NCBI GenBank assembly: GCA_031362905.1
Contig: JANLTL010000498.1
Location: 1 to 36,691, forward strand
Direction: 5' to 3'
Source of the DNA: Burkholderiales bacterium
Lineage (GTDB): Bacteria > Pseudomonadota > Gammaproteobacteria > Burkholderiales > JAEUOS01
DNA length: 36,691 bases
A program made the translations under genes and the position numbers. Shown in pieces: positions 8,490 to 26,537 of the stretch. How positions within the stretch are numbered: the stretch's first letter is position 1; the number at the start of each line of letters is the position of its first letter. The notes under the pieces were generated by a model, which saw nothing but the letters and a program-made list of their open reading frames with translations, searched no databases and was not told where the DNA came from.

Positions 8490-10802
8490 CTAAGCCTGCG
8501 CCCGCTGCAGGGCTTCGAGAATCTTCACCGGTGTGATCGGCAGCTCGGTGATGCGCACGCCGATCGCATCGTGCACGGCGTTGGCCACGGCGCTGGCAAT
8601 CGGCAGGATCGTCGCTTCCCCCGCACCTTTCGAGCCGAACGGCCCGGGGCCGTGGCCCTGCTCCTGCGTGATGGTGATGAAGTCGCGCGGCAGGTCTTCG
8701 GCCAGCGGCACGCGATAAGTCAGGGGATCGCCGTTGAGCAAACGCCCTGCGTCATCGTAGATCATGCGCTCGAACAGGGTTTGCCCGAGGCCCATGACGG
8801 CGGCACCGTCTTCCTGGCCCTTGCACACCAGCGGATTGAGCGAGCGGCCGGTATCGCCGCTGGCCACCAATTTGAGGATGTCGAGCTTGCCGGTCTCGGT
8901 GTCGACTTCAACCTCGACCGCACCCCAGCCGATCTCCCAGAACACGCACTGCGCTTCGAGCGGGGCGTGGTGATCCAGCGGCGGCTTGAAGTAGCCATCG
9001 GCGGAAAATTCATAGCCGGTGCCGCCGAAGTGGCGCATCACCAGCGGCATCAGCGGCTGGCGCTGTACACCGCGCACGATGACCGCATCGTCCAGCGTCA
9101 ACTCGCCGACCGGAGCATTCATTTCGAGCGCCGCGAACTCGAGAATCTGGCGCTTGAGCGCCTCCGCGGCGCGCATCACCGCGCGCCCCATCACGGCGAC
9201 GGCAGAGCTGGCATTGGTGCCCTGGTCAAAGGGTGTGAAGTCGGTATTGATTTTTGCGAAAGACACACGCTCGGTACGCGTACCCAGCACTTCGGCCACC
9301 AGTTGCGCGAGCGTCGTGTGCGCGCCCTGCCCGATCTCCACCGTACCGCAGTGCAGGAACACATCGCCGTTGGTGGTCATCTTGACGCGCGCCTGGGCCG
9401 GCTTGTTGACGCCGCCACCATCCTTGAAGCCAATGGCGAGACCAATACCGCGCTTTTTCGGCCCGGCGCCGCCACGCTGGCGGCCGTGATACCCAATGGC
9501 TTCGCACACGATGTCGAGACCGGCCTGCATGTCGCTGTCTACGCCGCTTTCGCCCGGCATGAAGGGTTCGCCCAATTTGAGCAAGTTGTGCTTGCGCATC
9601 TGGTAAGGATCGATCCCGAGGCGCCGCGCGATCATGTCGAGCTGCGACTCCGATGCCCAGCTCGCCTGGGTGCCGCCAAAGCCGCGAAACGGCCCCGCCG
9701 GCGCAGTATTGGTCATGACGCAGGCACAGCGCGAGTTGATGTGGCTCCAGCGGTAGGGCCCCGGAACGCGGTAGCCGGCCTTTTCTGCCACCAGGGGGCT
9801 GGCATCCGAGTAGGCACCGGCGTCGAGCAGGATCTCGCTGTCACGCGCGACCAGGGTGCCGTCGGCCATCACACCGGTTTGGAGACGCAAAATGGCTGCG
9901 TGTTGCGTGTTGGTGAGAAAACTCTCTTCCATCGTCAGGCACAGGCGCACCGGCTGGCCGGTCATCAGTGACAGCATGACTGAGACAGCTTCAGTCTTGA
10001 CATTGTTTTTGGAGCCAAACCCGCCGCCAATGTAGGGCACGTGCACGGTCACGCGGTTTTCCGGGCGTTTGAACATGCGCGCGATTTCCTTGCGCAAGGG
10101 AAACGGATTCTGGCAACTGGCCCAAACCTCGATCTGCCCGGCGCGCGCATGCGCGACGCTGACGAAGGGTTCGAGGTGGTAGTGCGTCATGCGCGAGAAG
10201 CGAAACTCGTCTTCGAACACGTGGTCGCAGCGTGCGAAGGCATCGGCGCTGCCGGTCTGATATGCGAATTCGTAGCAGACGTTCTTGCGCGGGCGCAACG
10301 CCGCACTGGCGCCGGCACCATAGGGCGGCACGATTCCAGCAGGCGCGGTCTCGAACAACGCAGGAAAGTCGTCAGCCAATGCTGCTTCGATGCTAGCCGC
10401 GACCGGCAGGCCGGCGTACACCACCTTGATCACCTGCAGCGCCTGCACGGCTACCGTTTCGGACTCCGCCACCACCGCGCAGACGATGTCACCGATATAG
10501 CGCACAGTATCGAGTGCGACCATCGGCTGGTCCTTGATGTAGTAGCCATAAAACGGCACCACGTGCGCCGGAATGTCGTCGCGGGTCAACACGGCGCGCA
10601 CGCCGGGCATGGCGCGCGCGGCGCTGGCATCGATCGACACCACGCGCGCGTGCGCGCGCGGACTGCGCAGCAACTTCGCATGCAGCATGCCGGGCAGGTT
10701 GATGTCAGGGCCGTAGAGGGCCTGGCCGCCGAGCTTGGCGCGCGCATCGCTGCGCGGCACCGAGCTGCCGACCTGCTTCAATGCGGACGCGACGGTGCTC
10801 AT
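8490..10802 (-). CDS. xanthine dehydrogenase-family molybdopterin-binding (large) subunit
   Basis: GGGFGSK, GPFRGFG, EIGQG, GPFGSKGAGE (catalytic Glu); ATG at 10802 overlaps upstream stop (ATGA). Confidence 0.95.
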   Translation of the reverse strand: MSTVASALKQVGSSVPRSDARAKLGGQALYGPDINLPGMLHAKLLRSPRAHARVVSIDASAARAMPGVRAVLTRDDIPAHVVPFYGYYIKDQPMVALDTVRYIGDIVCAVVAESETVAVQALQVIKVVYAGLPVAASIEAALADDFPALFETAPAGIVPPYGAGASAALRPRKNVCYEFAYQTGSADAFARCDHVFEDEFRFSRMTHYHLEPFVSVAHARAGQIEVWASCQNPFPLRKEIARMFKRPENRVTVHVPYIGGGFGSKNNVKTEAVSVMLSLMTGQPVRLCLTMEESFLTNTQHAAILRLQTGVMADGTLVARDSEILLDAGAYSDASPLVAEKAGYRVPGPYRWSHINSRCACVMTNTAPAGPFRGFGGTQASWASESQLDMIARRLGIDPYQMRKHNLLKLGEPFMPGESGVDSDMQAGLDIVCEAIGYHGRQRGGAGPKKRGIGLAIGFKDGGGVNKPAQARVKMTTNGDVFLHCGTVEIGQGAHTTLAQLVAEVLGTRTERVSFAKINTDFTPFDQGTNASSAVAVMGRAVMRAAEALKRQILEFAALEMNAPVGELTLDDAVIVRGVQRQPLMPLVMRHFGGTGYEFSADGYFKPPLDHHAPLEAQCVFWEIGWGAVEVEVDTETGKLDILKLVASGDTGRSLNPLVCKGQEDGAAVMGLGQTLFERMIYDDAGRLLNGDPLTYRVPLAEDLPRDFITITQEQGHGPGPFGSKGAGEATILPIASAVANAVHDAIGVRITELPITPVKILEALQRAQA

Positions 10803-11305
10803 GCTGCGCTCCCGGCGCGCAGTACCCGTGCAGCCTCTTGCACCGCCTCGATGATCAGCACATAACCGGTGCAGCGGCACACGTTGGAACTGATCCACTC
10901 AACGATGGTGTCATGGCTCGGGTCTGCATCGCGGTCCAGCAGCGCCTTGGTCAGCAGCACCATACCGGCCGTGCAGTACCCGCATTGAAACGCACTGCGC
11001 GCCACAAACGCCTGCTGGATCACACCCAGACTGCCATCCCCGGAGGCAAGGCCTTCGATGCTCAGCACCGCGCAACCGTTCACCTGAAAGGCAAAGGTGG
11101 AACAACTGGCCACCGGCGCGCCGTCCACCAGTGTCACGCAGGCTCCGCACACGCCACGCGAACAGCCGAGCTTGGTACCGGTGAGTCCCAAGTCGTCGTG
11201 CAGCAGATCGGCGAGCGTGCGTTCGATCGGGACATCGCGGCGCAGCAGTTGTCCGTTGACATGGCATTGCAGCGGATACCCATCCAAGGCGGCGGCTTCA
11301 GACAC
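10799..11305 (-). CDS. molybdenum hydroxylase 2x[2Fe-2S] (small) subunit
   Basis: GCSRGVCGACVTLVDG..SC, QCGYC, CRCTGY; GTG at 11305 follows GGAG. Confidence 0.95.
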   Translation of the reverse strand: MSEAAALDGYPLQCHVNGQLLRRDVPIERTLADLLHDDLGLTGTKLGCSRGVCGACVTLVDGAPVASCSTFAFQVNGCAVLSIEGLASGDGSLGVIQQAFVARSAFQCGYCTAGMVLLTKALLDRDADPSHDTIVEWISSNVCRCTGYVLIIEAVQEAARVLRAGSAA

Positions 11306-12170
11306 GTTCTGCTCCTGCAAGTTGACGGGCCAGCAATACCGATCCGGCGGCGACGCAGTAGGCGCGGGTTGCGACCGGATCGAAGAAGTCGCTGGGCAGT
11401 TGCGTAAAGGCCTGGTCGGCGATGTCTTTGGCCGCGCTCGCGATTTCGCGCAGTTCAGTGCCGGGCAAGTTCAGTTCCAGCAAGGCTGGGTGCAGGTATT
11501 CGGTGCCGACGGCACAGCGCAACCGCCAGCCCGCGCCGCCGCCATCGACGGGGCGGCGCAGGCATGCGGCCAGCGTGATCAGCGGGCGCATTGAGCGCTC
11601 GTAGGCGTACCAGGCAAGACCGCCGGTATCAATCGTGATGGCCGTCAACAAGGACCGTGGCGGGATGCGCCCGGCCCACAGATCAGCCGCCGCGAGCTTC
11701 GAAGCGCCCGCCGTGCTGGCGAACTCTAGCTCGGCCCCGATGGCGCTGAGCAGCAGCGCGCCTTCATAACGCGGGCGCAACGCCATCAGATTGCCGCCGA
11801 GGGTAGCGCGAAACCGGATGCGCGGATTGGAGATACGCGACCAGGCGTGCGCAAAGCCGGGCGCGCCTTCGCGCACCGTCGGGTGGCTGCAACCAGCACC
11901 ATGGGTGACGGCAGCGCCGATGCGCAGGTACCGTGCATCGGCGCTGACGGTGCGCAGCTCTGCCACATGCGCCAGATTGATCAATTCGCCAGGACTCAAG
12001 CCTTCGTTGAAGCGCGCCACCAGATCGGTGCCACCGCTCAGCAACACCGGGTTAGCGGCACGGCCGAGGGCATCGAGCGCTTCGGCCACGGTGCGTGGCT
12101 CGTATAACTTGAGCTTGGGCAGACTGCGCGCAGAAGTCGGAATCAGGCCGGCCGAACTCACCAGTTGCAT
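11298..12170 (-). CDS. molybdenum hydroxylase FAD-binding (medium) subunit
   Basis: PRTVAEAL, SGGTDL, IGAAVT, IRFRATLGGNL. Confidence 0.92.
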   Translation of the reverse strand: MQLVSSAGLIPTSARSLPKLKLYEPRTVAEALDALGRAANPVLLSGGTDLVARFNEGLSPGELINLAHVAELRTVSADARYLRIGAAVTHGAGCSHPTVREGAPGFAHAWSRISNPRIRFRATLGGNLMALRPRYEGALLLSAIGAELEFASTAGASKLAAADLWAGRIPPRSLLTAITIDTGGLAWYAYERSMRPLITLAACLRRPVDGGGAGWRLRCAVGTEYLHPALLELNLPGTELREIASAAKDIADQAFTQLPSDFFDPVATRAYCVAAGSVLLARQLAGAERV

Positions 12171-12263
12171 GGCATTACCTCTGGAAGGAGCGCATCGCGC
12201 CCCGAACTATCTGACAAGGGCGGGACTCCGGGCACCTCAACACCATCCCATGCTTTGCATCAT

Positions 12264-13328
12264 TCATGCGGGTTGCAGGGACGGTTTGGCCGTGGCTTGC
12301 AGCGCCAACCGCGCCTTTGCCTGATCGGTGGCGCGCTTTTCGAGCATGCGCCGCACCCGTGCGAGGCCCATATCGTGCTCGTACAAGAACTCGCGCTCGC
12401 GCGCGTCGGCCGGCATGCTCTCCAACACCCAGCGGTCTTGTTCGAGCACGTCCCAGTGCAGGCCCTCGAGCCGGTTGCGATAGAGAAAGCGCCAGACGTT
12501 GCGCTGCCAGCCCGACACTTTGCGGGTGCGCCAAAAGTACACCTGACAATGGGTCTCATCGACCGGCGTGGCGAAACCGGCAATCCCGAAACTGCCACCG
12601 GGGCCGTACTTCTTTTGATACGGAATGGTCAGGCGCAGCCACATGCAGCCAGTGTCGCCCAGCTCAACCCAGTCGAAGTTCACATCGCGCTGGCCGACCT
12701 TCTCGAATACGACACCGGTAGTCGTCTTGCGCACGCGCATCTCGGAGCGCTTGTCGCCATCGGCCATCGAGTGCGAGCTTGCGTGCAGATAGGCGCCGTG
12801 CATCGGGTCCATCACATTGTCGATGGCGTAGCGATAACTGGTGTTCCAGTTGGACAGACACAGGAAATGGGAATATTCATCCGAGACCAATTCTTCCGGC
12901 AGTTCGAGCGGTGCAGGTTTGGACGCAGGATCAACGCCGAACCAGAGAAACACAGCACCGGCGCGCTCCTCAACCGGATAGCTCTTGACGCAGGCCTTGC
13001 CTTCGAGCGGGCAATGCGCCGAGGCAGGCACTTCTTTCACAGTGCCGCTACCGTCGATCTGGATGCCGTGATACCAGCAGGCGACGCGATCGCCAAGGTT
13101 CCAGCCCAGCGACAGGCGCGCCCCGCGATGCGGGCAGCGGTCTTCGAGTGCGCGCACCTGGCCCGTGGCGTCGCGCCACAGCACGATGCGTTCGCCCAGC
13201 CGGGTGATGCCGACCGGTGCGTTGTGCACCTGCCAGCTCGGCGCGACCGGGTACCAGAGGTCGCGAATGCCGGTAGCGAGAATCTGCTGCGTGTGGCTTT
13301 CAATGGTGCTTGCTTCAAGAGTGTCCAT
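12264..13328 (-). CDS. Rieske non-heme iron ring-hydroxylating oxygenase, alpha subunit (no canonical beta subunit nearby)
   Basis: CPHRG..CWYHG Rieske ligands; NVMDPMHGAYLH and EQD mononuclear Fe ligands. Confidence 0.95.
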   Translation of the reverse strand: MDTLEASTIESHTQQILATGIRDLWYPVAPSWQVHNAPVGITRLGERIVLWRDATGQVRALEDRCPHRGARLSLGWNLGDRVACWYHGIQIDGSGTVKEVPASAHCPLEGKACVKSYPVEERAGAVFLWFGVDPASKPAPLELPEELVSDEYSHFLCLSNWNTSYRYAIDNVMDPMHGAYLHASSHSMADGDKRSEMRVRKTTTGVVFEKVGQRDVNFDWVELGDTGCMWLRLTIPYQKKYGPGGSFGIAGFATPVDETHCQVYFWRTRKVSGWQRNVWRFLYRNRLEGLHWDVLEQDRWVLESMPADAREREFLYEHDMGLARVRRMLEKRATDQAKARLALQATAKPSLQPA

Positions 13329-13358
13329 GTGGGGTCTCCGGTGGTCTGTGTGTTTGGC

Positions 13359-13655
13359 TCAAGCGCCGAGGCGTGCCATCTCGGCTTCGAACAAGGCCGC
13401 CGTCCACGCCGTGCCTGCGGCCGTGCGAAACGACTCGGCGTTGAAGTGCGACACGACCGCATCAATCGTTTCGGCACCGGTGACGAAGGCATGCTCGAGC
13501 GCATCGCCCAGCGCGTTTTCGTAATCGACGGGCTCGGTGGCACGGGTTTGCCAAACGATATTGGGCACCTGGCCGGGCACATCGATCTTGCCTTTGCCGG
13601 CGACATTGTTGGGCTGCGCCGGTTGCCAGGGCTTGAGATAGGGATTGAAGTTCAT
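13359..13655 (-). CDS. small recombinase-like HTH domain protein, Rieske oxygenase-associated
   Basis: 98 aa; YENALGDALE..F..G and G-x2-WT-x3-F-x2-EM-x-RLG pattern; AAGGAG RBS; between ferredoxin and oxygenase. Confidence 0.8.
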   Translation of the reverse strand: MNFNPYLKPWQPAQPNNVAGKGKIDVPGQVPNIVWQTRATEPVDYENALGDALEHAFVTGAETIDAVVSHFNAESFRTAAGTAWTAALFEAEMARLGA

Positions 13656-13681
13656 GGCGAGTTCTCCTTGGTCATCGTGAT

Positions 13682-13999
13682 TCATGCTGCGCTTGATTGC
13701 ACCTGAATGTCCTGCCCTTCCACGCGCACCGGAAAGGTTTTGACATCGCGGCAGGGCTCACCGCGCAAGTGTTTACCGCTAGTGACGTCAAACACCGCGT
13801 TGTGCAACGGGCACTCTACCTCGCAGCCGTCCACGAAGCCCTGGGTGAGCATGGCTGCCGCGTGCGGGCATACGTCTTCAATTACATGCAGGTTGCCGTC
13901 CACTTCATAGACACCAATCCTGATACTGCCCAGGCTCGCGCTCAAGGGCTGATCTTGTTCGACTTGGCCACGGGCGCCAACGGTAATCCAGGAATCCAT
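13682..13999 (-). CDS. Rieske-type ferredoxin
   Basis: CPH..VECPLHNAVFD. Confidence 0.95.
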   Translation of the reverse strand: MDSWITVGARGQVEQDQPLSASLGSIRIGVYEVDGNLHVIEDVCPHAAAMLTQGFVDGCEVECPLHNAVFDVTSGKHLRGEPCRDVKTFPVRVEGQDIQVQSSAA

Positions 14000-14040
14000 T
14001 GTGGGTCTCCTTTACGAAAGGTGAGTGGATGCGGCGCGGT

Positions 14041-15294
14041 TCAAGCGGATACGGAAGCGCCAGCCATCGCGTTGAGCGGCAGCTTGTTGAGGTCATTGCC
14101 CGGGTCGGACAGCGCCGCCAGATCGGGGTAGCGGTCGTCGCGCAGCCATTTGCGCGCGATCTTGATTTCGCGCCCGGCGTTGACCGCGGCCACGGCACGC
14201 ACCCGGGCGCCGTCACAGAAGAAATAAAGATGGGCGCGCTTGGCGGGTACATGGCGTTCGATCACCTGCATGCGCTCGTCTGGCAGACCCAGCAATTGCA
14301 GGTTGTCGTCGTACTGATCAGACCAGAACCACGGCGCAGCGTTGGCTTCTGCATCAGGCGCCAGGCCCAGTGCAGCCCTTGCGGCCGCCACTCCCTGGCG
14401 CTGCGCGTTCTCCCAGGATTCAATCCGCAAGCGCTTGCCATCGGGCCGCTGTGCGTTGGCGACGTCGCCCGCCGCAAAAATGGCAGGGTCGCTGGTGCGG
14501 CCATACGCATCGGTGAGCACGCCATTGCCAATCTCCAGACCGGCGCTGGCGGCGAGGGCGTCGTTGGCGACGAGGCCGATGCCCACCAGCAGCAGATCAC
14601 CGCCAAGCCGGTCGCCGCTCGCCAGGGTAATGGCGACGCCGGCGTCCGCCGTGTCGACGCGCTGCACCGCATCGCCCAGACGCACCGTCACGCCTTGCGC
14701 CGTGTGCAGCGCGAGCAAATGCGCGGATACACAGGGCGGCACCGTGCGCATACACAAGCGCGGTGCGGCTTCAACCAGCGTGACCGCCCGGCCCAGCAGG
14801 CGCGCCGACGCGGCCACTTCGAGTCCGATCCAGCCACCACCCAGCACCAGCACCTGCTGTGCCGCCAGGATGTCGCGCTTTAGGGCCAGCGCATCTTCAA
14901 AGGTGCGCAGGCTCGCAACGCGCGGGTGCGGTGCCAGACCTGGCAACTGGCGTGCACGCCCGCCATTGGCAAGGAACAACACGTCGTAGGCAATCGAATC
15001 GCCAGCGGCAGTGCGAATCATCTGTGCGGCGCGGTCAATCGATTCGACCGATTGACCTGGCCGCCAATCAATCTGCAACTGCGCGAACGCGTCATCGGCA
15101 ATCAACGCCAGATGCGCTACTGTCACTTCGCCTTTGAGCACTGCCTTGGAGAGCGGCGGACGCTCGTAGGCCCTGTGCGGCTCATCGCCCAGCCAGACGA
15201 TGCGGCCGCCGAAACCTTCACTGCGCAAGGTCAGCGCGATCCAGCGACCGGCCTGGCCGGCGCCGACGATGACGAAGGTGCGGGTAGCGCTCAT
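14041..15294 (-). CDS. glutathione reductase-type ferredoxin-NAD(P)+ reductase
   Basis: GAGQAG, YERPPLSK, GGGWIGLE, TSDPAIFAAGD, RIESWENA, PWFWSDQY. Confidence 0.95.
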   Translation of the reverse strand: MSATRTFVIVGAGQAGRWIALTLRSEGFGGRIVWLGDEPHRAYERPPLSKAVLKGEVTVAHLALIADDAFAQLQIDWRPGQSVESIDRAAQMIRTAAGDSIAYDVLFLANGGRARQLPGLAPHPRVASLRTFEDALALKRDILAAQQVLVLGGGWIGLEVAASARLLGRAVTLVEAAPRLCMRTVPPCVSAHLLALHTAQGVTVRLGDAVQRVDTADAGVAITLASGDRLGGDLLLVGIGLVANDALAASAGLEIGNGVLTDAYGRTSDPAIFAAGDVANAQRPDGKRLRIESWENAQRQGVAAARAALGLAPDAEANAAPWFWSDQYDDNLQLLGLPDERMQVIERHVPAKRAHLYFFCDGARVRAVAAVNAGREIKIARKWLRDDRYPDLAALSDPGNDLNKLPLNAMAGASVSA

Positions 15295-17373: not shown

Positions 17374-18870
17374 TCACGCCGCCCAGGGGAGTGGTGCGAC
17401 ATTCATGCCCCAATAAAAACTTTTTTGTTCCATGTATTCGAGAATGCCCAGGCGCCCCTTCTCGCGGCCGATGCCGCTGTCGCGCCAGCCGCCAAATGGG
17501 GTCGCAATCGAGAACTGCTTATAGGTATTGATCCACACTGTGCCGGCCTGTACCGCCCGGCCGATGCGCCAGGCGCGCTTGTAGTCACGGCTCCAGATGC
17601 CGGCAGCGAGCGCATAGATGCTGTCGTTCGCCTGCGCCAGCAAATCGTCTTCGTCATCAAACGGCAAGGCCACGAGTACCGGGCCAAAAATCTCCTCACG
17701 GCAGATCGCGCTGTCGTTGGCCAGACCCTCAATGATGGTCGGCGAGTAATAGCTGCCGCCCTCAAACCCCTCGCCATCGGGGCGCACACCACCCGCGAGC
17801 AGGCGACCGCCATCGGCAAGGCCGCGCGCCACGTAGCGCTCAACGCTGTCGCGATGGGCGTGACTGACCAGCGGCCCCATTTGGGTACGCTCCGATACCG
17901 GATCGCCGACCCGCAGCGCTTTGGCACCCTGCACCAGCCGGGCCATGAATTCGTCGTAAAGCCTGCGTTGCACAAACAGCCGAGAGCCGGCGATGCAGGA
18001 TTCGCCGGACGAACTGAAAATCCCGTACAGCACGCCGGCCACGGCGTGATCGAGATCGCAATCATCGAACACCATGGTCGGTGACTTGCCACCGAGTTCG
18101 AGCGACACCGGCATCATCTTGTCGGCGGCCACATGCGCGATCTGGCGCCCGGTGGTGGTGCCACCGGTGAACGACACGCGGCGCACCAGCGGATGCTTGA
18201 CCAGGAGGTCGCCAATCACCGATCCTTTGCCGGGCAGCACGCTGATGATGCCCCTGGGCACGCCGGCCGCTTCGCAGATACGCGCCAGTTCGAGCGCCAG
18301 CAGCGGCGTGATCTCGGCCGGTTTGACCACCACCGCATTGCCAGCCGCCAGCGCCGGCGCCATCTTCTGCGCTTCGCTCGCCACCGGCGAAGTCCACGGC
18401 GTGATCGCGGCCACCACCCCCATCGGCTCATGCACGCTCATGGTGAGCTGATCGCCGCGCATCGGCGTCAACTGGTCTTCGAAGGTTTCGCAGGCGGAGG
18501 CAAAAAACTGGAACGTGCCGGCCGCACTGTCGACCAGTGCGCGCGTCTCGTTGATCGGCTTGCCGTTGTCGCGGCGCTGCCATTGCGCCAGGTCTTCACG
18601 CCGCGCGCGAATTTGCTCGGCTACGCGGAACAGCACGCGCGCGCGCTCATGCGCCTTGCGGCTGGCCCAATCGGTATTGTGAAACGCGTGGTCCGCACGC
18701 TCCACGGCTTCATTGGCGTCGGCGGCGCTGGCGGCGTGCAATTCGGCGCTGACGCTGCCATCGGCGGGATAAATGCTGGTGTAAGCGTGGCCGCGCCCGC
18801 GCCGCCATTCGCCGGCAACGCAAATCGATACATCGCGCAGTGGCAGGGATTGATGCAAGGGGTCGTTCAT
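17374..18870 (-). CDS. NAD(P)-dependent aldehyde dehydrogenase
   Basis: FTGG, LELGGKSP, GESCIAG, EEIFGPV, PFGG; PWN motif reads PWT. Confidence 0.95.
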   Translation of the reverse strand: MNDPLHQSLPLRDVSICVAGEWRRGRGHAYTSIYPADGSVSAELHAASAADANEAVERADHAFHNTDWASRKAHERARVLFRVAEQIRARREDLAQWQRRDNGKPINETRALVDSAAGTFQFFASACETFEDQLTPMRGDQLTMSVHEPMGVVAAITPWTSPVASEAQKMAPALAAGNAVVVKPAEITPLLALELARICEAAGVPRGIISVLPGKGSVIGDLLVKHPLVRRVSFTGGTTTGRQIAHVAADKMMPVSLELGGKSPTMVFDDCDLDHAVAGVLYGIFSSSGESCIAGSRLFVQRRLYDEFMARLVQGAKALRVGDPVSERTQMGPLVSHAHRDSVERYVARGLADGGRLLAGGVRPDGEGFEGGSYYSPTIIEGLANDSAICREEIFGPVLVALPFDDEDDLLAQANDSIYALAAGIWSRDYKRAWRIGRAVQAGTVWINTYKQFSIATPFGGWRDSGIGREKGRLGILEYMEQKSFYWGMNVAPLPWAA

Positions 18871-19721
18871 AGCGCAATCCGCCCAAAGCTGTTGTGGATG
18901 GCCCGCACGATGCTGTAGACAGTGAGGGCGGAGGTCTTGGGATTGGCGGCGAGGGGCTCGTTTTCCAGCGTCAGATCAAGACGCCCGAATGCGCCACTGG
19001 CGACGATGCGATGCACATTGCGCTGGACGCCAGGATCCGCGATGAGCGTGGCAGAAGTTTCGTCAAAGCCCAATCCGGCCAAGGCGACGGTGGCGGCGAC
19101 ATTGGCGTTTTTTGGATACAGGCGCGCGGCTTCGCGTGCACTGCCTTCGAAAATGATCACGGGCGCAGCCAGATTCGCCAGATCAAAGCGCGCTTCCGCT
19201 GGCGTGCCGCGCCATCCCGCTGGCGGTTTGCGACCCGTATATTGAACTTGCGACAGCCCGCCGAAGCGTGCGGCGGCGAGCGCGTCGATGCCGCCGATGG
19301 CACCGGACACCAGTTGCACGTGCGTGGCGCCCTGTGCGGCAGCATCGGACAAGCGCGCCAGAGCGGAGGCATCGTGCAGTGAGCCGATTGACGCCACCAC
19401 GGCTGGCACGCCGGCGCAGAGCGCGGGTATCACGTGATCGGTCACGGCTTGATGGCCGGCACATTCGACGACCAAATGCGGGCGCGACCGATCGTCAAGA
19501 GCGTCAAGAGCGCCAAGCGCAAGGCTGCTTGCGACCTGGGCTTGGGGCGCGAGGCTCGCACACAGCACGCGCACTGCCATCAATCCCGATTCGGGCACGA
19601 TCACCTGCGCAACCTGGACCAGGCTCTGCGCCTGCAACAGTTGCAGTACCGCAGTGCCAATCGCGCCGCAGCCAATCATGGCCAGGCGCGGCAGCGCCGC
19701 GTCTGCGCGGCATTGCGTCAT
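18867..19721 (-). CDS. nadX: L-aspartate dehydrogenase family protein
   Basis: GCGAIG, VECAG, SGAIGGID, YPKNANVAA, NVHRI, NPKTSALT. Confidence 0.9.
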   Translation of the reverse strand: MTQCRADAALPRLAMIGCGAIGTAVLQLLQAQSLVQVAQVIVPESGLMAVRVLCASLAPQAQVASSLALGALDALDDRSRPHLVVECAGHQAVTDHVIPALCAGVPAVVASIGSLHDASALARLSDAAAQGATHVQLVSGAIGGIDALAAARFGGLSQVQYTGRKPPAGWRGTPAEARFDLANLAAPVIIFEGSAREAARLYPKNANVAATVALAGLGFDETSATLIADPGVQRNVHRIVASGAFGRLDLTLENEPLAANPKTSALTVYSIVRAIHNSFGRIAL

Positions 19722-21370
19722 GCAGCCACCTTGACCGGCGGGCCGGCAAACGCAGTTTTGAAACTGCCAATGGCCAGCATATCGACTTCAAGCATTTTCG
19801 GCCCCGGCAGACGGCCCAGCTCATCCAATAGCCTGGCCGCCTCGCTCAGGCGGCTGACGCGGCGATGCTCGAATTGCAGCGAGTTCGCGAGCAAAGCGTA
19901 GTCGGGCGTGTGCAGGTCAGCGTACACGCGGCGACCACCGTACTGCGCATCCTGAATATTCTTGATGACGCCGTAGCTGCGATCATTCATCAAAACGATG
20001 GTGAAGTCAGCACGCTCCTGCACCGCGCACGCGAGTTCACCCAGATTGAGAATGAAGCCGCCATCACCGGCGAGCAGCAATGTGCGTTTGCCGGTGTTGC
20101 ATACGGCGGCACCAATGGCGGTGCCGATGCCCATGGCGAGCCCCAGGCCAATGCCGCCACCGAGCGCGTGCACGCCGGCACGCGCGTCGTGCAGACGCAG
20201 TTCGCGATTGCCCCAGGTACTGTTCGACACCGTGACATCGCGCACCCAGTTAAATTGGCTGCCCGCAGCGCCCTGCACGGCATCGACCAGCTCGGCATAC
20301 GGCCCCAGGCCTTCGCGCAAGGCGGCGACTGCCTTGACATGCGCGCTGCGCAGGTCAGCGGCGAAGGCTGGATCGATCTTCATGCGCCCTTCAAGCTGGT
20401 CGGCCAACGCCGTCAGGGCCAACGCGGCATCGCCCCAGACGAAATGGCGGCTGGCATAGCAGCGGCCATCGGCGCGCGCATCGGCGTCGATGCGGAAGCG
20501 CGCTTGCGGCAGTTTGAGCTGGTATTTGAGGGTCTCGTTGCCGCGCAGCCGCGAGCCGACGATCAGGACGGCGTCGCAGGTTTGATAGAACGCCTCGACG
20601 GGCGGCGCCACGTTGTAGGCGCCCAACGACAGTGGGTGGGTCTCAGCGACGATACCGCGGCCTTGCGTGCTGGTGACGACACCAAACCCCATCGCCACCA
20701 GGCGTGCCACCGCCGCCCCCGCGCCGCGCGCGCCGCCACCGAGCCACAGCAAGGGCCGGCGGGCGCCGGCGAGTGCCTCGGCCAACGCGTGCACGGCGCG
20801 CGGATCCGGCAGCACCGGCGCCACCGCCAGCGGCTCGAGGTCATCAGGCATGTCGATCAGCGCGGCTTGAATATCGATCGGCACTTCCACGCTCACCGGC
20901 CCGCTGGGCGCATGGAGTGCGGTATGCACCGCCTGCCTGAAGGTGGCCAGTGCGGTCTCGGCACTGCGTACCCGCCAGGCATTCTTGGAAATGGCCTTGA
21001 GCATGCGCAGTTGATCGGGGGCTTCGTGAATATAGGCGAGGTCCTGGTCGAGGTACGGTGTTTCAATCTGTCCGGTGATATGCAGCAGCGGCGTGCCGGC
21101 GGTGAGTGCTTCAACCATGCCACCAGCAGCATTGCCAGCGGCCGTGCCGGTGCTGGTGATGCACACGCCGAGCATGCCGGTGCTGCGCGCGCAGGCGTCC
21201 GCCATGCTGGTGGCCCCGGCTTCGCCACGCGCCGACACGAAGCGGATTGCGCCGCGTTCGGCAATCGCATCGAGGATCGGCATGTTGTGGATGGAAATGA
21301 CGCCAAACGCCGCCTTGACGCCGCAGCGTTCGAGAAAGGCGGCAATGACGTGACCGACGGTGACTTTCAT
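19718..21370 (-). CDS. thiamine diphosphate-dependent enzyme (acetolactate synthase-like decarboxylase)
   Basis: RGEAGA (conserved Glu), GDGGF..MNDRSYG ThDP/Mg motif. Confidence 0.93.
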   Translation of the reverse strand: MKVTVGHVIAAFLERCGVKAAFGVISIHNMPILDAIAERGAIRFVSARGEAGATSMADACARSTGMLGVCITSTGTAAGNAAGGMVEALTAGTPLLHITGQIETPYLDQDLAYIHEAPDQLRMLKAISKNAWRVRSAETALATFRQAVHTALHAPSGPVSVEVPIDIQAALIDMPDDLEPLAVAPVLPDPRAVHALAEALAGARRPLLWLGGGARGAGAAVARLVAMGFGVVTSTQGRGIVAETHPLSLGAYNVAPPVEAFYQTCDAVLIVGSRLRGNETLKYQLKLPQARFRIDADARADGRCYASRHFVWGDAALALTALADQLEGRMKIDPAFAADLRSAHVKAVAALREGLGPYAELVDAVQGAAGSQFNWVRDVTVSNSTWGNRELRLHDARAGVHALGGGIGLGLAMGIGTAIGAAVCNTGKRTLLLAGDGGFILNLGELACAVQERADFTIVLMNDRSYGVIKNIQDAQYGGRRVYADLHTPDYALLANSLQFEHRRVSRLSEAARLLDELGRLPGPKMLEVDMLAIGSFKTAFAGPPVKVAA

Positions 21371-21436
21371 GGGATGGCTTTCGAATCAGGGAACCAGGGA
21401 ACCAGCGAATCAGCGAAGCGGGACCGGACCAACAAA

Positions 21437-22234
21437 TCAGAGATGGCGCGCCAAACCGCCGGACACATCAATCTGGCTGCCGGTGGTATAGGACGATGCG
21501 GGGGTGGCGAGGTGAAAGATGGCGCGCGCGGCTTCATCCGGCGTGCCGAGGCGCTTGAGCGGGATGCCTTTGCGGGCTGCGAGCGCGCCGCTCCATTGCG
21601 CCCAGGTCAGGTCTGCGTCTTCGCGCTGTTCAAAGCGGCGGCGCCACTGGCCGGACTCGACCAGACCAATCAAGATCGCGTTGACGCGAACGCCTTTGGG
21701 TGCGAACTCGGCGGCCATCGAATGCATCAGGCTGAGCGCACCGGCACGTGCGGCCGATGTGGCGACCATGTGTGGTTCAGGCTGCAGGGCCAGCAGCGAG
21801 TTGACACACACCACGGCCGCATGCGGGCTGCGCTCCAGGTGCGGCAAGAACGCGCGGGTCGGGTAAACCAGAGAGAACAATTTGAGTTGCCATTCGTTGG
21901 CCCAGTCGGCATCACTGGTGGTGGCAAAGGTTGAAACCCGCCCCTGACCCGCGTTGTTGACGAGGATGTCGACACCGGCAAACCGTTCGGCGGCAGCAGC
22001 GGCGAACGCGCGCACTTGCGCGGCATCGAGCACATCGCAAGGCATGGCAAGCAGTCGCGCACCGGCGTGTGTGGCACGCAGGCTTGCTTCGGCCTCGCAC
22101 AGTCTTGCTTGATCGCGCCCACAAATCGCCACGGCCGCGCCGGCACGCAAGAACAGATCGGCTGTCGCCAGACCAATGCCTGAACTGCCGCCGGTAATGG
22201 CGCAGGTGCTGGCCGACAAGTCGATGGTCAGCAT
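21437..22234 (-). CDS. atypical SDR oxidoreductase, NADP(H)-type, lacking YxxxK
   Basis: TGGSSGIG, CGR, NNAG, TSAAR in place of YxxxK, RVN, RLGTPDE. Confidence 0.9.
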   Translation of the reverse strand: MLTIDLSASTCAITGGSSGIGLATADLFLRAGAAVAICGRDQARLCEAEASLRATHAGARLLAMPCDVLDAAQVRAFAAAAAERFAGVDILVNNAGQGRVSTFATTSDADWANEWQLKLFSLVYPTRAFLPHLERSPHAAVVCVNSLLALQPEPHMVATSAARAGALSLMHSMAAEFAPKGVRVNAILIGLVESGQWRRRFEQREDADLTWAQWSGALAARKGIPLKRLGTPDEAARAIFHLATPASSYTTGSQIDVSGGLARHL

Positions 22235-22241
22235 GGGCCCT

Positions 22242-23063
22242 TCACGCCTGGCGCAGCGCCACAGCCGGCGCTTCGTCGGCCTGCTGTTGATGAAAATTGA
22301 GCAGCGTCGAGAGTCGCGCGGCGGTGCCGCAGACCTGTGCCACCAGCGTGGCGCGCTTGTCCGTCGCCACTTCGGCACCAGGAACGGTCAAGCCGATCGC
22401 GGCAACGATATGCCCTTCCTGGTCGCGCACTGGCGCGGCGACGGTAGAGATATGCGGTTCAAAAAACGCCTCGGCCAACACCCAGCCGCGCTTGCGGATC
22501 TGCTGCACCATCTCGAACAGCGCGGCGGTATCAACCGGCGTACTGGCGCTGCGCGCTTCGAGCCTGGGTTCGGGGTAGAGTGCGCGCAAGGCACCGAGTG
22601 ACAAGTCGCCCAGCAGCACATGGCCAAACACGGTAGCGTGTGCAGGCAGGCGGGTGCCGACCGACACTGCGGTGGCAAACGGCGCGCGCGAGGGCGCGCG
22701 CTGCAGATAGACCACGTCCCGTACGTCGCGCACCACCAGGCTCGCCGCATAGCCAGTCTCGTCGCGCAGCGCTTCGATCAAGGGGCGGCCCAGTTCCACC
22801 ATGTCGAGCGAGGCCAGATATTCAAACCCCATGCGCAAAATGGCGAGGCCGAGCCGGTAAGAGCGGCCATCGGGTGTGCGCTCAACAAAGCCGAGGTTCT
22901 CCAGCGTCACCAGGAGCCGAAACACGGTGGAGCGCGGAATACCGAGACGCTGTGCCAGCTCGGGCGGCGACAACACCGGTTCACTGCGGGAAAACTCACC
23001 GAGCAGGCGCAGGCCGCGCTCGAGCCCCGGCACGGTGTAACGATCAGAATCGGTTTCGGCCAT
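22242..23063 (-). CDS. IclR family transcriptional regulator
   Basis: LERGLRLL, IPRSTVFRLLVTLE HTH, VGTRLPAHAT, VAAPVRD. Confidence 0.95.
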   Translation of the reverse strand: MAETDSDRYTVPGLERGLRLLGEFSRSEPVLSPPELAQRLGIPRSTVFRLLVTLENLGFVERTPDGRSYRLGLAILRMGFEYLASLDMVELGRPLIEALRDETGYAASLVVRDVRDVVYLQRAPSRAPFATAVSVGTRLPAHATVFGHVLLGDLSLGALRALYPEPRLEARSASTPVDTAALFEMVQQIRKRGWVLAEAFFEPHISTVAAPVRDQEGHIVAAIGLTVPGAEVATDKRATLVAQVCGTAARLSTLLNFHQQQADEAPAVALRQA

Positions 23064-23173
23064 GGTGAAAGGCGGTCTCGGAAAATAGCGGGCGTTGCGC
23101 GTTCAGAATCGGCAAGTCACGGCGGGCAGGAGCGTTGGGTTCGCGCCAACGGTGCGGCAGCCACGCCCAGAAC

Positions 23174-23701
23174 TCAGCGCTTGATCGAGGCCAGCGGATG
23201 ATCCGGCGGATAAGTTGGCGTAACCGGCTTGGCGGCGCCGAGCATGACGCACATCAGGACATCCTCTTCGCCGATGTTGATTTCGCCGCGATACACGCCG
23301 GGTGGAATCGAGATCAGGTCGCGCTCGCCCAACAGGGCTTCCCAGTACTGACCATCTTTTTCGCACATCACCTTGACCTTGCCGCGCATCACGAAGAACA
23401 CTTCTTCGACGTCGTTATGGATATGCATCGGCCCTTCATGGCCGGCCGGAATGATCATGGTCGAAAAGGTGAAGTGCTCGGAAGGTACGGAGCCGGCGTC
23501 CGCAGCGATGCCAGTGCCGCCGGTACCGAGATAGCGCATTTGCGCGCGCCGGTATTTGGGATCAAAGTCCGCCTGAAATTTGAGCGCGTTCCAGTCGTAA
23601 CGGCGCGTACTATGCAAGGCGCAGCGCGACTCCATCCATGCTGAGAAACTGACACCGTCGGGTTTAACCTGAGTGGGGATGGCGGGAGGGTTTTGCGTCA
23701 T
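23174..23701 (-). CDS. cupin domain protein
   Basis: PAGHEGPMHIHNDVEEVFFV (motif 1), DLISIPPGVYR (motif 2); AGGAGA RBS. Confidence 0.88.
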   Translation of the reverse strand: MTQNPPAIPTQVKPDGVSFSAWMESRCALHSTRRYDWNALKFQADFDPKYRRAQMRYLGTGGTGIAADAGSVPSEHFTFSTMIIPAGHEGPMHIHNDVEEVFFVMRGKVKVMCEKDGQYWEALLGERDLISIPPGVYRGEINIGEEDVLMCVMLGAAKPVTPTYPPDHPLASIKR

Positions 23702-23781
23702 GATGATCTCCTGAATGGGGAATCGGCTTGCGGCGTCGGATTGGGGCTTGGGCTTGAGGGTCTTTTTTGATTGATTAATAT

Positions 23782-23818
23782 TGATTTACTAATGATACAT
23801 TGATTCACATATAAACCA
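23782..23818. promoter_or_regulatory. tandem pair of 18-bp imperfect palindromes, putative IclR operator (left)
   Basis: TGATTTACTAATGATACA-T-TGATTCACATATAAACCA; 28/37 identical to 23959-23995. Confidence 0.65.
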
Positions 23819-23846
23819 TATTATTCCACACGATACAGTTTGTCAA
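23818..23846 (-). promoter_or_regulatory. sigma70 promoter of the leftward catabolic operon
   Basis: TTGACA (23846-23841), 17 bp spacer, TAATAT (23823-23818) on the minus strand. Confidence 0.7.
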
Positions 23847-23958
23847 GCCCCTGTCGGAACCACGTCGAGTTTCTGCACAATTCCCCGGCTGCTTGAACCA
23901 AGTGGCCAAAATGCCATAAGGATAAGGATGCACAATGGTACATAATCATGTGAGCATC

Positions 23959-23995
23959 TGGTTTTTTAATGAAACATTGTTTAATATATAGAACA
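23959..23995. promoter_or_regulatory. tandem pair of 18-bp imperfect palindromes, putative IclR operator (right)
   Basis: TGGTTTTTTAATGAAACA-T-TGTTTAATATATAGAACA, 22 bp before the SDR start. Confidence 0.65.
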
Positions 23996-24017
23996 ATAAA
24001 CTGCCAAGGTCCACAAT

Positions 24018-24788
24018 ATGCAAACTCCCCTGCCCTCTACCCTTCTTGCCGGCTATCGCATCCTGGTAACCGGTGGCGCCCGGGGACTGGGTTTTGCATT
24101 TGCCCGCGCGATTGCCTCACATGGCGCCTGTGTCGTGATCGCTGACGTGCTCACTGCCCTGGTAACAAGTGCTGCCGGCACACTGCGAGCCGAAGGCCTC
24201 GACGTGCAGGCCCTCCCCCTCGATCTCGAGAACGAAACCTCGACCCGCACCTGCGCGGCAGCCGCCATCAGTGCTCTCGGCGGTCTCGATGGCCTGGTCA
24301 ACAACGGCGCGATTACCAGTTCGGGCGGCCGCAGTGCACAGGAACTGGAGCCCGCCGTGTGGGACCGCGTGATGAACGTCAACGTGCGCGGCACCTGGCT
24401 GATGACCCGCGCCTGCACCGCCGCGCTGGGCCAGAGCGGCCGGGGTGCGGTCGTCAACCTCGCATCAGACACGCCTCTGTGGGGTGCGCCCAATCTGCTC
24501 GCCTATGTGGCCAGCAAAGGCGCCATCGTCGCGATGACACGCTCGCTGGCGCGCGAGTTGGGTGCCGATGGCATCACCGTCAACGCGGTTGCGCCCGGCC
24601 TCACTTTGGTCGAGGCCACCGAATACATACCCGAACACCGCCATCAGCTCTACCGCGGCATGCGCGCCCTGCAGCGCGACCAGTTGCCCGAAGATGTCTG
24701 CGGCGGCGTGGTGTTCTTGCTCAGCCCTCTATCCCGCTTTGTCACCGGCCAGCTATTGGCGGTGAACGGCGGCTTCGTGATGCACTGA
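24018..24788 (+). CDS. classical SDR oxidoreductase, NAD(H)-type
   Basis: TGGARGLG, VIAD (acidic residue at beta2), NNGA, LAS, YVASK, VNAVAPG. Confidence 0.93.
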   Translation: MQTPLPSTLLAGYRILVTGGARGLGFAFARAIASHGACVVIADVLTALVTSAAGTLRAEGLDVQALPLDLENETSTRTCAAAAISALGGLDGLVNNGAITSSGGRSAQELEPAVWDRVMNVNVRGTWLMTRACTAALGQSGRGAVVNLASDTPLWGAPNLLAYVASKGAIVAMTRSLARELGADGITVNAVAPGLTLVEATEYIPEHRHQLYRGMRALQRDQLPEDVCGGVVFLLSPLSRFVTGQLLAVNGGFVMH

Positions 24789-24792
24789 AACC

Positions 24793-25644
24793 ATGCGCCT
24801 CAACCGCTTACTCGAGCAGTATCCGCCGCGCACCGTGCAGGCGGCTGCGCGGCAACTCTCTTTTCGCAGCACTGAAGGTCGTGACAAGCGCACAGCGCCT
24901 ACCTTGGTATTGCTGCATGGCATCGGCACCGATTCGGCGTCATGGGTGCAGCAACTGGACGCATTCGCGCCGGTCTGCCGCGTGGTGGCGTGGGATGCAC
25001 CTGGCTACGCTGCATCCTCTCCCCTGCCCGGCGACGCCCCCACAGCGGCGGACTACGCCGAAGCATTGTTGGCGCTGCTGGACGCGCTGGACATATCCAG
25101 GGCCCTCCTGCTCGGCCAGTCACTGGGTGCGCTGATGGCCGCCTCCTTTGCGGCACGCTACCCCGATCGGATTGAAAAACTGGTGCTCACCGGTCCCGCT
25201 TCAGGCTACGCCAATGCCACCGCGGCCGAACGCGCCGAACGCCTCGACAAGCGCGTCAAACAAATGAATGAGCAAGGCCCGCAAGGCATGGCAGCCGCAC
25301 GCGGCGCCAACATGTTGTCGGAATTGGCGTCAGAAGAAGTACGCGACTTTCTCGGCGCATGCCAGGCGCGTCTCAACCCTGCGGGCTACCTTCAGGCCGC
25401 GCACATGCTCTCGGGCGCTGTCATCGCGCAAGACGCGGCGCGTTACAGCGCGCCGGTGCTGGTGTTGTCAGGCGCCGTCGACAAACTCACGCCGGAAGCC
25501 GGCTGCCGCGCCGTGGCGCAGGCGTTTCCGTGTGGCTTTTACCGTTCCCTGCCCGGCTTGGGTCACGGCGGCTATGTCGAGGATGCCACGCGGGTGAACA
25601 GCATTCTCGCAAGCTATCTGGGGCTCGCCTTGACGCAGGCCTGA
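24793..25644 (+). CDS. alpha/beta-fold hydrolase
   Basis: LLHGIG, WDAPGY, GQSLG nucleophile, VDKLTP, LGH. Confidence 0.92.
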   Translation: MRLNRLLEQYPPRTVQAAARQLSFRSTEGRDKRTAPTLVLLHGIGTDSASWVQQLDAFAPVCRVVAWDAPGYAASSPLPGDAPTAADYAEALLALLDALDISRALLLGQSLGALMAASFAARYPDRIEKLVLTGPASGYANATAAERAERLDKRVKQMNEQGPQGMAAARGANMLSELASEEVRDFLGACQARLNPAGYLQAAHMLSGAVIAQDAARYSAPVLVLSGAVDKLTPEAGCRAVAQAFPCGFYRSLPGLGHGGYVEDATRVNSILASYLGLALTQA

Positions 25645-26522: not shown

Positions 26523-26537
26523 CACCGCGCGCACACC

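Follow-up and report, generated by a model that had tools for sequence, protein, structure and literature searches.

The stretch of DNA analyzed here (the window) is an entire contig of 36.7 kb (JANLTL010000498.1) from a metagenome-assembled genome (MAG) of a member of the Burkholderiales (GCA_031362905.1); the MAG comprises 5.2 Mb in 745 contigs and is 94% complete. Our subject is the gene cluster at positions 8490 to 25644, which a first-pass annotation had proposed as a complete cluster for the degradation of quinaldate and kynurenate. Genes were called from a listing of open reading frames (ORFs) combined with Pfam and NCBIfam scans (NCBIfam library of June 2026). The span holds 17 genes, 15 on the minus strand and 2, divergent from these, on the plus strand, and all 17 elements that the annotation had named were found at the coordinates it gave. 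They are listed here together with the control region between the two divergent groups.

8490-10898, minus: molybdenum (Mo) hydroxylase, large (molybdopterin) subunit (Ald_Xan_dh_C, MoCoBD_1, and MoCoBD_2)
10799-11320, minus: Mo-hydroxylase, small subunit with 2x[2Fe-2S] (Fer2_2 and Fer2)
11298-12170, minus: Mo-hydroxylase, medium (flavin adenine dinucleotide [FAD]) subunit (FAD_binding_5)
12264-13328, minus: terminal Rieske oxygenase, alpha-only type (Rieske and VanA_C)
13359-13685, minus: HTH_62 protein, 108 amino acids (aa) (PF20552, 84 bits)
13682-13999, minus: Rieske-type ferredoxin (Rieske, Rieske_2)
14041-15294, minus: ferredoxin-NAD(+) reductase (Pyr_redox_2 and Reductase_C; HcaD-like, 351 bits, under the cutoff)
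15323-16279, minus: VOC type I extradiol dioxygenase (Glyoxalase domain)
16313-17413, minus: TctC/Bug solute-binding protein, intra-operon (TctC, 199 bits)
17374-18870, minus: aldehyde dehydrogenase (ALDH) (Aldedh, 550 bits)
18867-19721, minus: L-aspartate dehydrogenase (AspDH), NadX type (NF009827, 361 bits versus a cutoff of 226)
19718-21370, minus: thiamine diphosphate (ThDP) enzyme, PRK07064 family (NF005470, 861 bits versus a cutoff of 495)
21437-22234 (ORF to 22378), minus: atypical NADP-type short-chain dehydrogenase/reductase (SDR), PRK07062 family, SDR-21437 (NF005468, 422 bits versus a cutoff of 266, aligned from residue 49)
22242-23063, minus: IclR-family regulator (HTH_IclR and IclR_C)
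23174-23701, minus: metal cupin (Cupin_2)
23702-24017: AT-rich divergent control region, 316 bp
24018-24788, plus: classical NAD-type SDR, SDR-24018 (adh_short_C2)
24793-25644, plus: alpha/beta hydrolase (Abhydrolase_1)

The start codon of SDR-21437 is the ATG at 22234 (Met49 of the ORF), 7 nucleotides (nt) past the stop codon of the IclR gene. The long ORF starts of the Mo-hydroxylase large subunit, its iron-sulfur subunit, and TctC are probably too long, because they overlap the upstream genes.

We compared the cluster with related loci. The oxygenase was aligned with 11 relatives, and then one genome per species was scanned; 533 of 600 pattern-matched stretches encoded a relative. The comparison loci are the best 80 of these 533, all from other genomes, with oxygenases 62 to 87% identical to that of the window. 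Because the loci were selected on the oxygenase, it is present in 80 of 80, and because about half of them are from Burkholderia, Paraburkholderia, or Caballeronia, the loci are not independent. All window proteins were searched against the 80 loci with tblastn, and a gene was counted when identity was ≥40%. By this measure the IclR regulator and SDR-24018 were each present in 73 loci, the cupin and the ThDP enzyme each in 71, HTH_62 in 69, the VOC dioxygenase in 66, SDR-21437 in 64, AspDH in 62, ALDH in 59, the Rieske ferredoxin in 56, the alpha/beta hydrolase in 54, and the ferredoxin reductase in 47. The intra-operon TctC (16313-17413) reached this identity in only 12 loci.

The conserved genes also lie together. 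All 11 core genes were within 10 kb in 51 of the 80 loci, in at least 8 gene orders. (For this count and for the adjacency counts that follow, thresholds were slightly lower than 40%; the fetched flanks were 10 kb, and several loci were cut by contig ends.) Among loci holding both members of a pair, HTH_62 adjoined the oxygenase in 69 of 77, the oxygenase adjoined SDR-24018 in 63 of 73, SDR-24018 adjoined the cupin in 65 of 70, and the cupin adjoined the hydrolase in 59 of 69. Likewise, SDR-21437 was next to the ThDP enzyme in 57 of 62 loci, the ThDP enzyme next to AspDH in 57 of 62, AspDH next to ALDH in 54 of 57, ALDH next to the VOC dioxygenase in 47 of 59, and the latter next to the reductase in 49 of 50. 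The module is carried by Burkholderia, Paraburkholderia, Cupriavidus, Ralstonia, Acinetobacter, Zobellella, and alphaproteobacterial MAGs. One cultured carrier is Paraburkholderia xenovorans LB400. The transport genes are exchanged between lineages and may be TctC, a porin, a major facilitator superfamily (MFS) transporter, or an NMT1-type ATP-binding cassette (ABC) system; Acinetobacter calcoaceticus and A. nosocomialis have the full module with an MFS transporter. A protein cluster of 2,754 members is 83% identical to the A. nosocomialis oxygenase, and the oxygenase family was seen in Acinetobacter, Klebsiella, Serratia, Burkholderia, and others.

Recurrence in many gene orders and genera, together with exchange of the transporter, is the signature of a functional module. 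Thus, the data support the view that the genes are one coherent, conserved catabolic unit with a core of about 12 to 13 genes. The first-pass annotation had read them as one such unit and had suggested a synteny search as a check; in that search the core set recurred in the 51 loci from other genomes, beyond chance grouping, and with conserved sub-blocks.

The residues that identify the core enzymes are conserved as well. In the VOC protein H154, H195/196, H212, H244, Y253, and E263 are invariant in 65 sequences, and it carries the marks of a type I extradiol dioxygenase; by analogy with BphC we take H154, H212, and E263 to be the His/His/Glu iron ligands, and a catalytic His and the Tyr to be among the other residues. 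Its best family matches in NCBIfam are HpaD-like. The cupin residues H93, H95, E99, and E100 are invariant in 72 sequences. Its best sequence match in PDB is the quercetinase QueD (E, 4e-4), and its fold matches generic cupins, among them 5-nitrosalicylate dioxygenase and Ni-quercetinase. SDR-24018 has the motif TGGxxGLG, Asp43 at the end of beta-2, and the tetrad N122/S150/Y163/K167, which mark it as NAD type; Asp43 and the tetrad are invariant in 68 sequences. SDR-21437 has TGGSSGIG and Gly87-Arg88, which mark it as NADP type, and we call it atypical because T207...R211, invariant in 32 orthologues, replaces YxxxK. Both cofactor assignments agree with the fingerprints recorded in the earlier annotation. 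In the hydrolase S110, D230, and H258 are invariant in 65 sequences.

Family models placed the remaining enzymes with various degrees of precision. AspDH passed the curated equivalog model NF009827 given above. The ThDP enzyme is nearest to families of 2-oxo acid decarboxylases, although the families that it and SDR-21437 match have only generic names. ALDH scored 493 and 473 bits against betaine-aldehyde dehydrogenase models, 430 bits against phenylacetaldehyde dehydrogenase, and 449 and 402 bits, both under the cutoffs, against HpaE and 2-hydroxymuconic semialdehyde dehydrogenase. No NCBIfam equivalog in the June 2026 library names the oxygenase, the VOC dioxygenase, the cupin, the HTH_62 protein, or the hydrolase, and the names given at source to about 240 listed homologues are generic.

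The oxygenase has the class marks of the alpha-only (phthalate/VanA) type, namely the Rieske CxH...CxxH motif, the DxxHxxxxH iron motif, and a VanA_C domain; C65-x-H67...C84-x-x-H87 and D174-x2-H177-x4-H182 are invariant among 12 aligned sequences. Its nearest solved structure in a PDB sequence search is a putative phthalate 4,5-dioxygenase (E, 9e-21). It also matches 2-oxoquinoline 8-monooxygenase OxoO (1z01; E, 1e-11), in the Rieske domain only (residues 17-134), and a protein atlas search with the oxygenase returned generic Rieske clusters only.

The oxygenase departs from the alpha-only class in one respect. Members of that class have no second structural subunit, but here the HTH_62 protein adjoins the oxygenase in most loci and is predicted to bind it. 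The predicted complex had a median ipSAE of 0.87, while the best of three controls gave 0.00. The ipSAE mark used in this test was reached by 58 of 80 solved complexes and by 2 of 110 mismatched pairs, counts that hold only roughly here because our own alignments were used for the prediction. The runs agreed in at least 88% of contacts, and the predicted local distance difference test (pLDDT) score of HTH_62 in the complex was ≥83. Modeled alone with AlphaFold (mean pLDDT, 74.6), HTH_62 has three confidently predicted helices in its C-terminal half, whereas its N-terminal half is disordered; in the complex, this N-terminal half makes many of the predicted contacts with the oxygenase. HTH_62 is not an NTF2-like beta subunit; Foldseek found no PDB fold match at E ≤ 0.001, and there was no PDB sequence match either.

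Two further observations bear on this partnership. A three-member protein cluster (P0175) is a natural fusion of HTH_62 and the oxygenase. In addition, we searched an even sample of 301 genomes of the order, using the ThDP enzyme (NF005470 over its cutoff) as a marker for the module; HTH_62 was found in 13 of the 301, and 12 of those 13 have the ThDP marker, in most cases on the contig that carries HTH_62 and no more than about 11 kb from it. HTH_62 is single copy in the window's own genome. Because of the predicted complex, the natural fusion, and the near-perfect co-occurrence with the module, we predict that HTH_62 is a dedicated and previously undescribed subunit or partner of one family of Rieske oxygenases. 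HTH_62 was not mentioned in the full-text literature that we searched, from which subscription journals are largely absent. A second apparent fusion, of the oxygenase to an SDR (P0156; 544 aa), has an SDR part that is 59% identical to SDR-24018 and lacks the N-terminal Rossmann motif. We set it aside as evidence because, with the first ~47 SDR residues missing, it may be a gene-calling artifact.

Animals form kynurenic acid as a major metabolite of tryptophan, with neuroactive and immunoactive properties, and microbes also produce it. Its bacterial breakdown was charted biochemically about 60 years ago. In the classical pathway, worked out in the 1950s and 1960s, kynurenate is converted to the 7,8-dihydrodiol (Enzyme Commission [EC] 1.14.99.2), then to 7,8-dihydroxykynurenate (EC 1.3.1.18), and then cleaved between C-8 and C-8a (EC 1.13.11.10); side-chain reduction and loss of CO2 follow, giving 5-(2-carboxyethyl)-4,6-dihydroxypicolinate. 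Dagley and Johnson reportedly found 2-oxoglutarate, oxaloacetate, and ammonia as products.

Because each enzyme class of the module maps to one step of this pathway, kynurenate is the best-fitting substrate. We conclude that the module most likely encodes the classical kynurenate ("quinoline") pathway, with a probability that we put at roughly 0.55. The proposed route is as follows. The oxygenase, with HTH_62, the ferredoxin, and the reductase, would convert kynurenate to the 7,8-dihydrodiol, which the NAD-type SDR-24018 would rearomatize to 7,8-dihydroxykynurenate. The VOC dioxygenase would cut C8-C8a, yielding 5-(3-carboxy-3-oxopropenyl)-4,6-dihydroxypicolinate. The NADP-type SDR-21437 would then saturate the side-chain double bond, the ThDP enzyme would convert the 2-oxo acid to an aldehyde plus CO2, and ALDH would oxidize the aldehyde to 5-(2-carboxyethyl)-4,6-dihydroxypicolinate. 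For the end steps, the cupin may be a dioxygenase that attacks C5 of the enolized 4,6-dioxo (beta-dicarbonyl) ring and cuts C4-C5; this role fits a protein whose best match is a quercetinase, since quercetinases attack enolized dicarbonyls. The Ser-Asp-His hydrolase would split the resulting N-(2-oxoglutaryl) enamine into 2-oxoglutarate and iminoaspartate, and AspDH would form L-aspartate by reducing the iminoaspartate, which otherwise decays to oxaloacetate and ammonia. The nadX-type gene would thereby gain a catabolic role. The aspartate skeleton would come from N1, C2 and its carboxyl, C3, and C4 of kynurenate, and 2-oxoglutarate from C6, C5, and the carboxyethyl chain, so that carbon balances (C10 - CO2 = C5 + C4). 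IclR would control both divergent operons, and the Bug protein would bring the substrate in.

Several lines of evidence are consistent with this assignment. The module combines the enzyme classes needed to form a dihydrodiol, to dehydrogenate it with NAD, and to carry out extradiol cleavage, and their genes are adjacent in most loci. The classes needed to reduce the side chain and to decarboxylate a 2-oxo acid oxidatively form a conserved block, which shows the class of the reactions, not the substrate. The step assignment made in the first-pass annotation predicts the sub-blocks that we observed (oxygenase/SDR-24018, cupin/hydrolase, and the SDR-21437/ThDP/AspDH/ALDH run): they are expected if SDR-24018 is the diol dehydrogenase, if SDR-21437, the ThDP enzyme, and ALDH trim the side chain, and if the cupin and the hydrolase act sequentially. 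We also count in favor of kynurenate that the nearest solved relative of the oxygenase is of the dihydrodiol-forming phthalate-dioxygenase type. No curated family or searched paper assigns the genes of the module to another function. A 2024 review states that pseudomonads form glutamate, alanine, and organic acids from kynurenate (PMC11354673, citing Horibata 1961), which would fit a pathway ending in C5 and C4 compounds. Another review reports that A. baumannii can use kynurenic acid for growth (PMC10732645).

Links to tryptophan metabolism point weakly in the same direction. We cross-tabulated by genome three profile searches over the 301 genomes, for the ThDP marker, tryptophan 2,3-dioxygenase (TDO), and kynureninase. 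Among the 13 genomes with the marker, 10 have TDO and 8 have kynureninase; among the 288 without it, the numbers are 50 and 37. This enrichment supports the kynurenate assignment weakly, given the relatedness of the genomes and the fact that most carriers are large generalists. The window's own genome, 94% complete, has TDO and no kynureninase over the cutoff.

A number of findings weigh against the kynurenate assignment. There is no TDO within 10 kb of the module in any of the 80 loci, and in the 8 marker-positive genomes with kynureninase the kyn genes are on other contigs or 125 kb away. One genome with a complete chromosome (G185) has the module and neither TDO nor kynureninase. We considered whether the module is a general fate of kynurenine where kynureninase is missing and rejected this idea, since the marker is present in just 2 of 21 genomes that have TDO and lack kynureninase. 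The report of growth is second-hand and concerns A. baumannii, whereas the module was seen in A. calcoaceticus and A. nosocomialis. In the cupin the histidine of the second motif is missing, and the fold matches only generic cupins. No characterized enzyme is close to the oxygenase family, so that the 7,8 regiochemistry proposed here is tentative. The Mo-hydroxylase, discussed below, is no closer to quinoline 2-oxidoreductase than to 4-hydroxybenzoyl-coenzyme A (CoA) reductase and is no more than a candidate quinaldate 4-oxidoreductase. Finally, kynurenate as the substrate is inferred from the enzyme classes.

The same module could instead degrade another bicyclic N-heteroaromatic carboxylate, and kynurenate would then be no more than a side substrate. 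The main substrate might be xanthurenate, a different substituted quinoline-2-carboxylate, a carboxylate of isoquinoline, or an alkaloid acid of plant or microbial origin. The logic of the genes (ring dioxygenation, extradiol cleavage, trimming, pyridine opening, and an aspartate-type fragment) would suit any 4-oxygenated quinoline-2-carboxylate, and the oxygenase has no characterized close relative. Carriers include the insect- or plant-associated Acinetobacter apis, Entomohabitans, Providencia, Serratia, Erwinia, and Pantoea, and Mo-hydroxylases of two lineages have been recruited beside the oxygenase. However, a substrate already hydroxylated at C-8, e.g., xanthurenate, would call for a monooxygenase and would not require a diol dehydrogenase, but in 63 of 73 loci the oxygenase is followed by SDR-24018. 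Moreover, kynurenate is, as far as is known, the one compound of the class with a described pathway of exactly these reactions. We regard a different bicyclic substrate as unlikely.

The Mo-hydroxylase stands apart from the conserved module. It is of the xanthine dehydrogenase family, with all three subunits (molybdopterin, FAD, and 2x[2Fe-2S]) present. The large subunit has no NCBIfam equivalog above the cutoff, and its best PDB matches are 4-hydroxybenzoyl-CoA reductase (7e-86), 6-hydroxypseudooxynicotine dehydrogenase (4e-77), and quinoline 2-oxidoreductase (1t3q; 1e-76). A close homologue, with subunits 75, 63, and 55% identical, is present in 1 of the 80 loci, L004. A second lineage is present in two more, L001 (11086-14711) and L002 (10794-14667); these two are 86% identical to each other and 36% identical to that of the window, and their subunit order is L-M-S versus M-S-L in the window. 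In the window, L004, L001, and L002 the Mo genes are directly beside the oxygenase, and all four rank within the five closest relatives by oxygenase. Thus, the Mo-hydroxylase is a clade-specific add-on, and the claim of a complete cluster for quinaldate did not hold, since this enzyme falls outside the conserved pathway. It is probably a recurrent add-on that feeds the oxygenase: with the second Bug protein, it would hydroxylate a precursor such as quinaldate to the substrate of the module, e.g., quinaldate to kynurenate. Two lineages beside the oxygenase fit an N-heteroaromatic substrate. The case for quinaldate is nevertheless weaker than that for kynurenate as the substrate of the module. 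The second TctC/Bug gene (7171-8325, plus strand; TctC, 230 bits), which is outside the annotated span, possibly belongs with this add-on, as a 50% identical homologue lies directly past the Mo-hydroxylase in L004.

The Mo-hydroxylase and the module might also be neighbors only because they share an island, each serving a separate pathway. Consistent with this, the Mo-hydroxylase is missing from 76 of the 80 loci, and genes without relation to the module (PhyH, Ldh_2, BTP, and a transposase fragment) are present in the island too. On the other hand, the Mo genes are immediately beside the oxygenase in all four cases, and two lineages unrelated to each other (36% identity) occupy the same position. 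In G185, the genome from which L002 comes, the module lies in two places: L002 has the oxygenase, HTH_62, IclR, and TctC together with the Mo-hydroxylase, and the ThDP block and the rest of the module are 2.4 Mb away. Mere sharing of an island thus appears unlikely.

It is very unlikely that a monocyclic aromatic acid, e.g., an amino- or carboxy-substituted benzoate, is degraded by the module through a meta-cleavage pathway in which ALDH would oxidize the ring-fission semialdehyde and AspDH would handle the nitrogen or another amino or imino acid: the best solved relatives of the oxygenase do act on phthalate and dicamba, the VOC dioxygenase is HpaD-like and is adjoined by ALDH, and ALDH scores well against HpaE and 2-hydroxymuconic semialdehyde dehydrogenase, but ALDH scores equally well or better against betaine-aldehyde dehydrogenase and similarly against phenylacetaldehyde dehydrogenase, no gene for a meta-pathway hydratase, aldolase, tautomerase, or 4-oxalocrotonate decarboxylase was found in the conserved set, and the ThDP decarboxylase, the cupin, the atypical SDR, and AspDH, which are as conserved as the oxygenase (62 to 71 of 80 loci), would be left without roles.

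We compared the proposed kynurenate pathway with known systems. The number and kinds of reactions in the classical pathway match the conserved genes one for one. The end steps assigned to the cupin, the hydrolase, and AspDH differ in that they are proposed here and are not described biochemistry, and nothing in the early enzyme work corresponds to the HTH_62 partner. The quinoline system of Pseudomonas putida 86 (Qor plus OxoOR) likewise couples a Mo-hydroxylase of three subunits to a subsequent alpha-only Rieske oxygenase whose target is the carbocyclic ring of a quinoline, but the likeness of our oxygenase to OxoO is limited to the Rieske domain. The 8-hydroxycoumarin route of quinoline degradation needs no ThDP enzyme, cupin, or aspartate dehydrogenase. 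In arginine catabolism, 5-guanidino-2-oxopentanoate decarboxylase pairs with an aldehyde dehydrogenase. This two-enzyme shortening of a 2-oxo acid by one carbon is the same as that proposed here; the decarboxylase model (NF005712) is the third-best match of the window's ThDP enzyme, but the score is only 244 bits versus a cutoff of 500, and the enzyme belongs to the PRK07064 family.

The pic cluster of Alcaligenes faecalis JQ135 also has a Mo-hydroxylase (PicA) beside a Rieske oxygenase (PicB) and acts on an N-heteroaromatic 2-carboxylate (10.1101/530550). However, PicB is likened there to two-subunit oxygenases such as anthranilate and salicylate dioxygenases, and we therefore ruled out a PicB-like identity for our oxygenase. 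The later steps of the pic route involve 3,6-dihydroxypicolinate decarboxylase, 2,5-dihydroxypyridine dioxygenase, a deformylase, an amidase, and maleate isomerase (10.1101/530550), and Pfam and NCBIfam scans found none of the corresponding domains in the span.

The first-pass annotation had also pointed to a similar nadX-containing cluster in P. aeruginosa PAO1 (around PA3498-PA3514). This was confirmed in part, and the PAO1 genes are possible counterparts of ours: in the accessible portion of a preprint, PA3504-PA3514 is treated as one region without an assigned function, in which PA3507 is an SDR, PA3508 a regulator, and PA3512 an ABC transporter (10.1101/2025.04.03.646983). PA3505 is placed under nicotinate/nicotinamide metabolism, as a nadX-type gene would be, in another paper (PMC9732424). 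The family names of SDR-21437 (PRK07062) and the ThDP enzyme (PRK07064) are in keeping with a run of genes of this kind. ABC transporters of the NMT1 type lie beside the module in loci from alphaproteobacterial and other MAGs.

New in this analysis are HTH_62 as a predicted oxygenase subunit and the insertion site of the cluster between ispD and ispF (see below). A wider claim is that the module is the missing genetic basis of the bacterial kynurenate pathway, including three undescribed end steps, an oxygenase that requires HTH_62, and the first sequenced quinaldate 4-oxidoreductase; taken as a whole, this claim is tentative, and we lean slightly away from it. Our full-text search found no gene assigned to the degradation of kynurenate, quinaldate, or xanthurenate in the literature that it covered, which largely excludes subscription journals and supplements. 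If the kynurenate assignment is correct, it would provide sequences for three orphan enzymes (EC 1.14.99.2, 1.3.1.18, and 1.13.11.10) and add three undescribed end steps: a 4,6-dihydroxypyridine-opening cupin dioxygenase, an N-acyl-enamine hydrolase, and a catabolic aspartate dehydrogenase that traps iminoaspartate. It would also explain a nadX-type gene in a catabolic operon, offer a marker for kynurenate consumption in genomes and microbiomes, and reveal a new kind of accessory subunit for Rieske oxygenases.

The cluster is flanked by two genes that are neighbors elsewhere. In the window, ispF (about 6643-7120) and ispD (32493-33173) are 25 kb apart, and the cluster, the PhyH, Ldh_2, and BTP genes, and a Y2 transposase fragment lie between them. 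In a family-mate (G058), which lacks the ThDP marker and HTH_62, the gap between ispD and ispF is 1.6 kb. The ThDP block of G185 also lies between ispD and ispF, and in another genome (G148) the module adjoins ispF. By these gene arrangements, the cluster is an insertion between ispD and ispF, and apparently a horizontally acquired catabolic island. The loci closest to the window are from Burkholderiales MAGs.

The spacer between the divergent operons (23702-24017) contains the sole sigma-70-like match in 7000-26600, on the minus strand at 23846-23818 (1 found versus 3.3 expected). Terminator-like sites were not above chance (15 found versus 16.4 expected). A palindrome at 23976-23997, ATTGTTTAATA/TATAGAACAAT, about 20 nt upstream of the start codon of SDR-24018, is a candidate IclR operator.

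The other features of the window lie outside the module.

471-1457, minus: intradiol (catechol 1,2-type) dioxygenase, divergent from the TctC gene at 1510-2589
1510-2589, plus: third TctC/Bug gene, at the start of the contig
4432-6528, plus: protein of 698 aa with FHA and Ser/Thr protein kinase domains
25764-26522, plus: PhyH-family dioxygenase, starting 120 nt past the hydrolase gene on the same strand
26538-27404, plus: ORF of 288 aa
27524-28567, minus: Ldh_2-family dehydrogenase
28586-29131, minus: BTP-family protein
31845-32306: Y2_Tnp transposase fragment

Few of these genes have counterparts in the comparison loci. Upstream of 8490, 6 of 7 genes scored 0 of 80 loci with tblastn, and the seventh, TctC at 1510-2589, has matches in 6. 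Downstream, the Ldh_2, 288-aa ORF, and BTP genes each scored 0 of 80, and the PhyH gene has a lone match, in L050, at 31% identity. Two minus-strand ORFs, at 25671-26453 and 26454-27557, were rejected as spurious: they have no Pfam match and no relatives in the 80 loci, and the real gene is the plus-strand PhyH.

No RNA run is listed among the sequencing runs that match the stretch. Eight DNA sequencing runs match it, all from 2 studies labeled sediment or freshwater sediment, and one of these may be its source.

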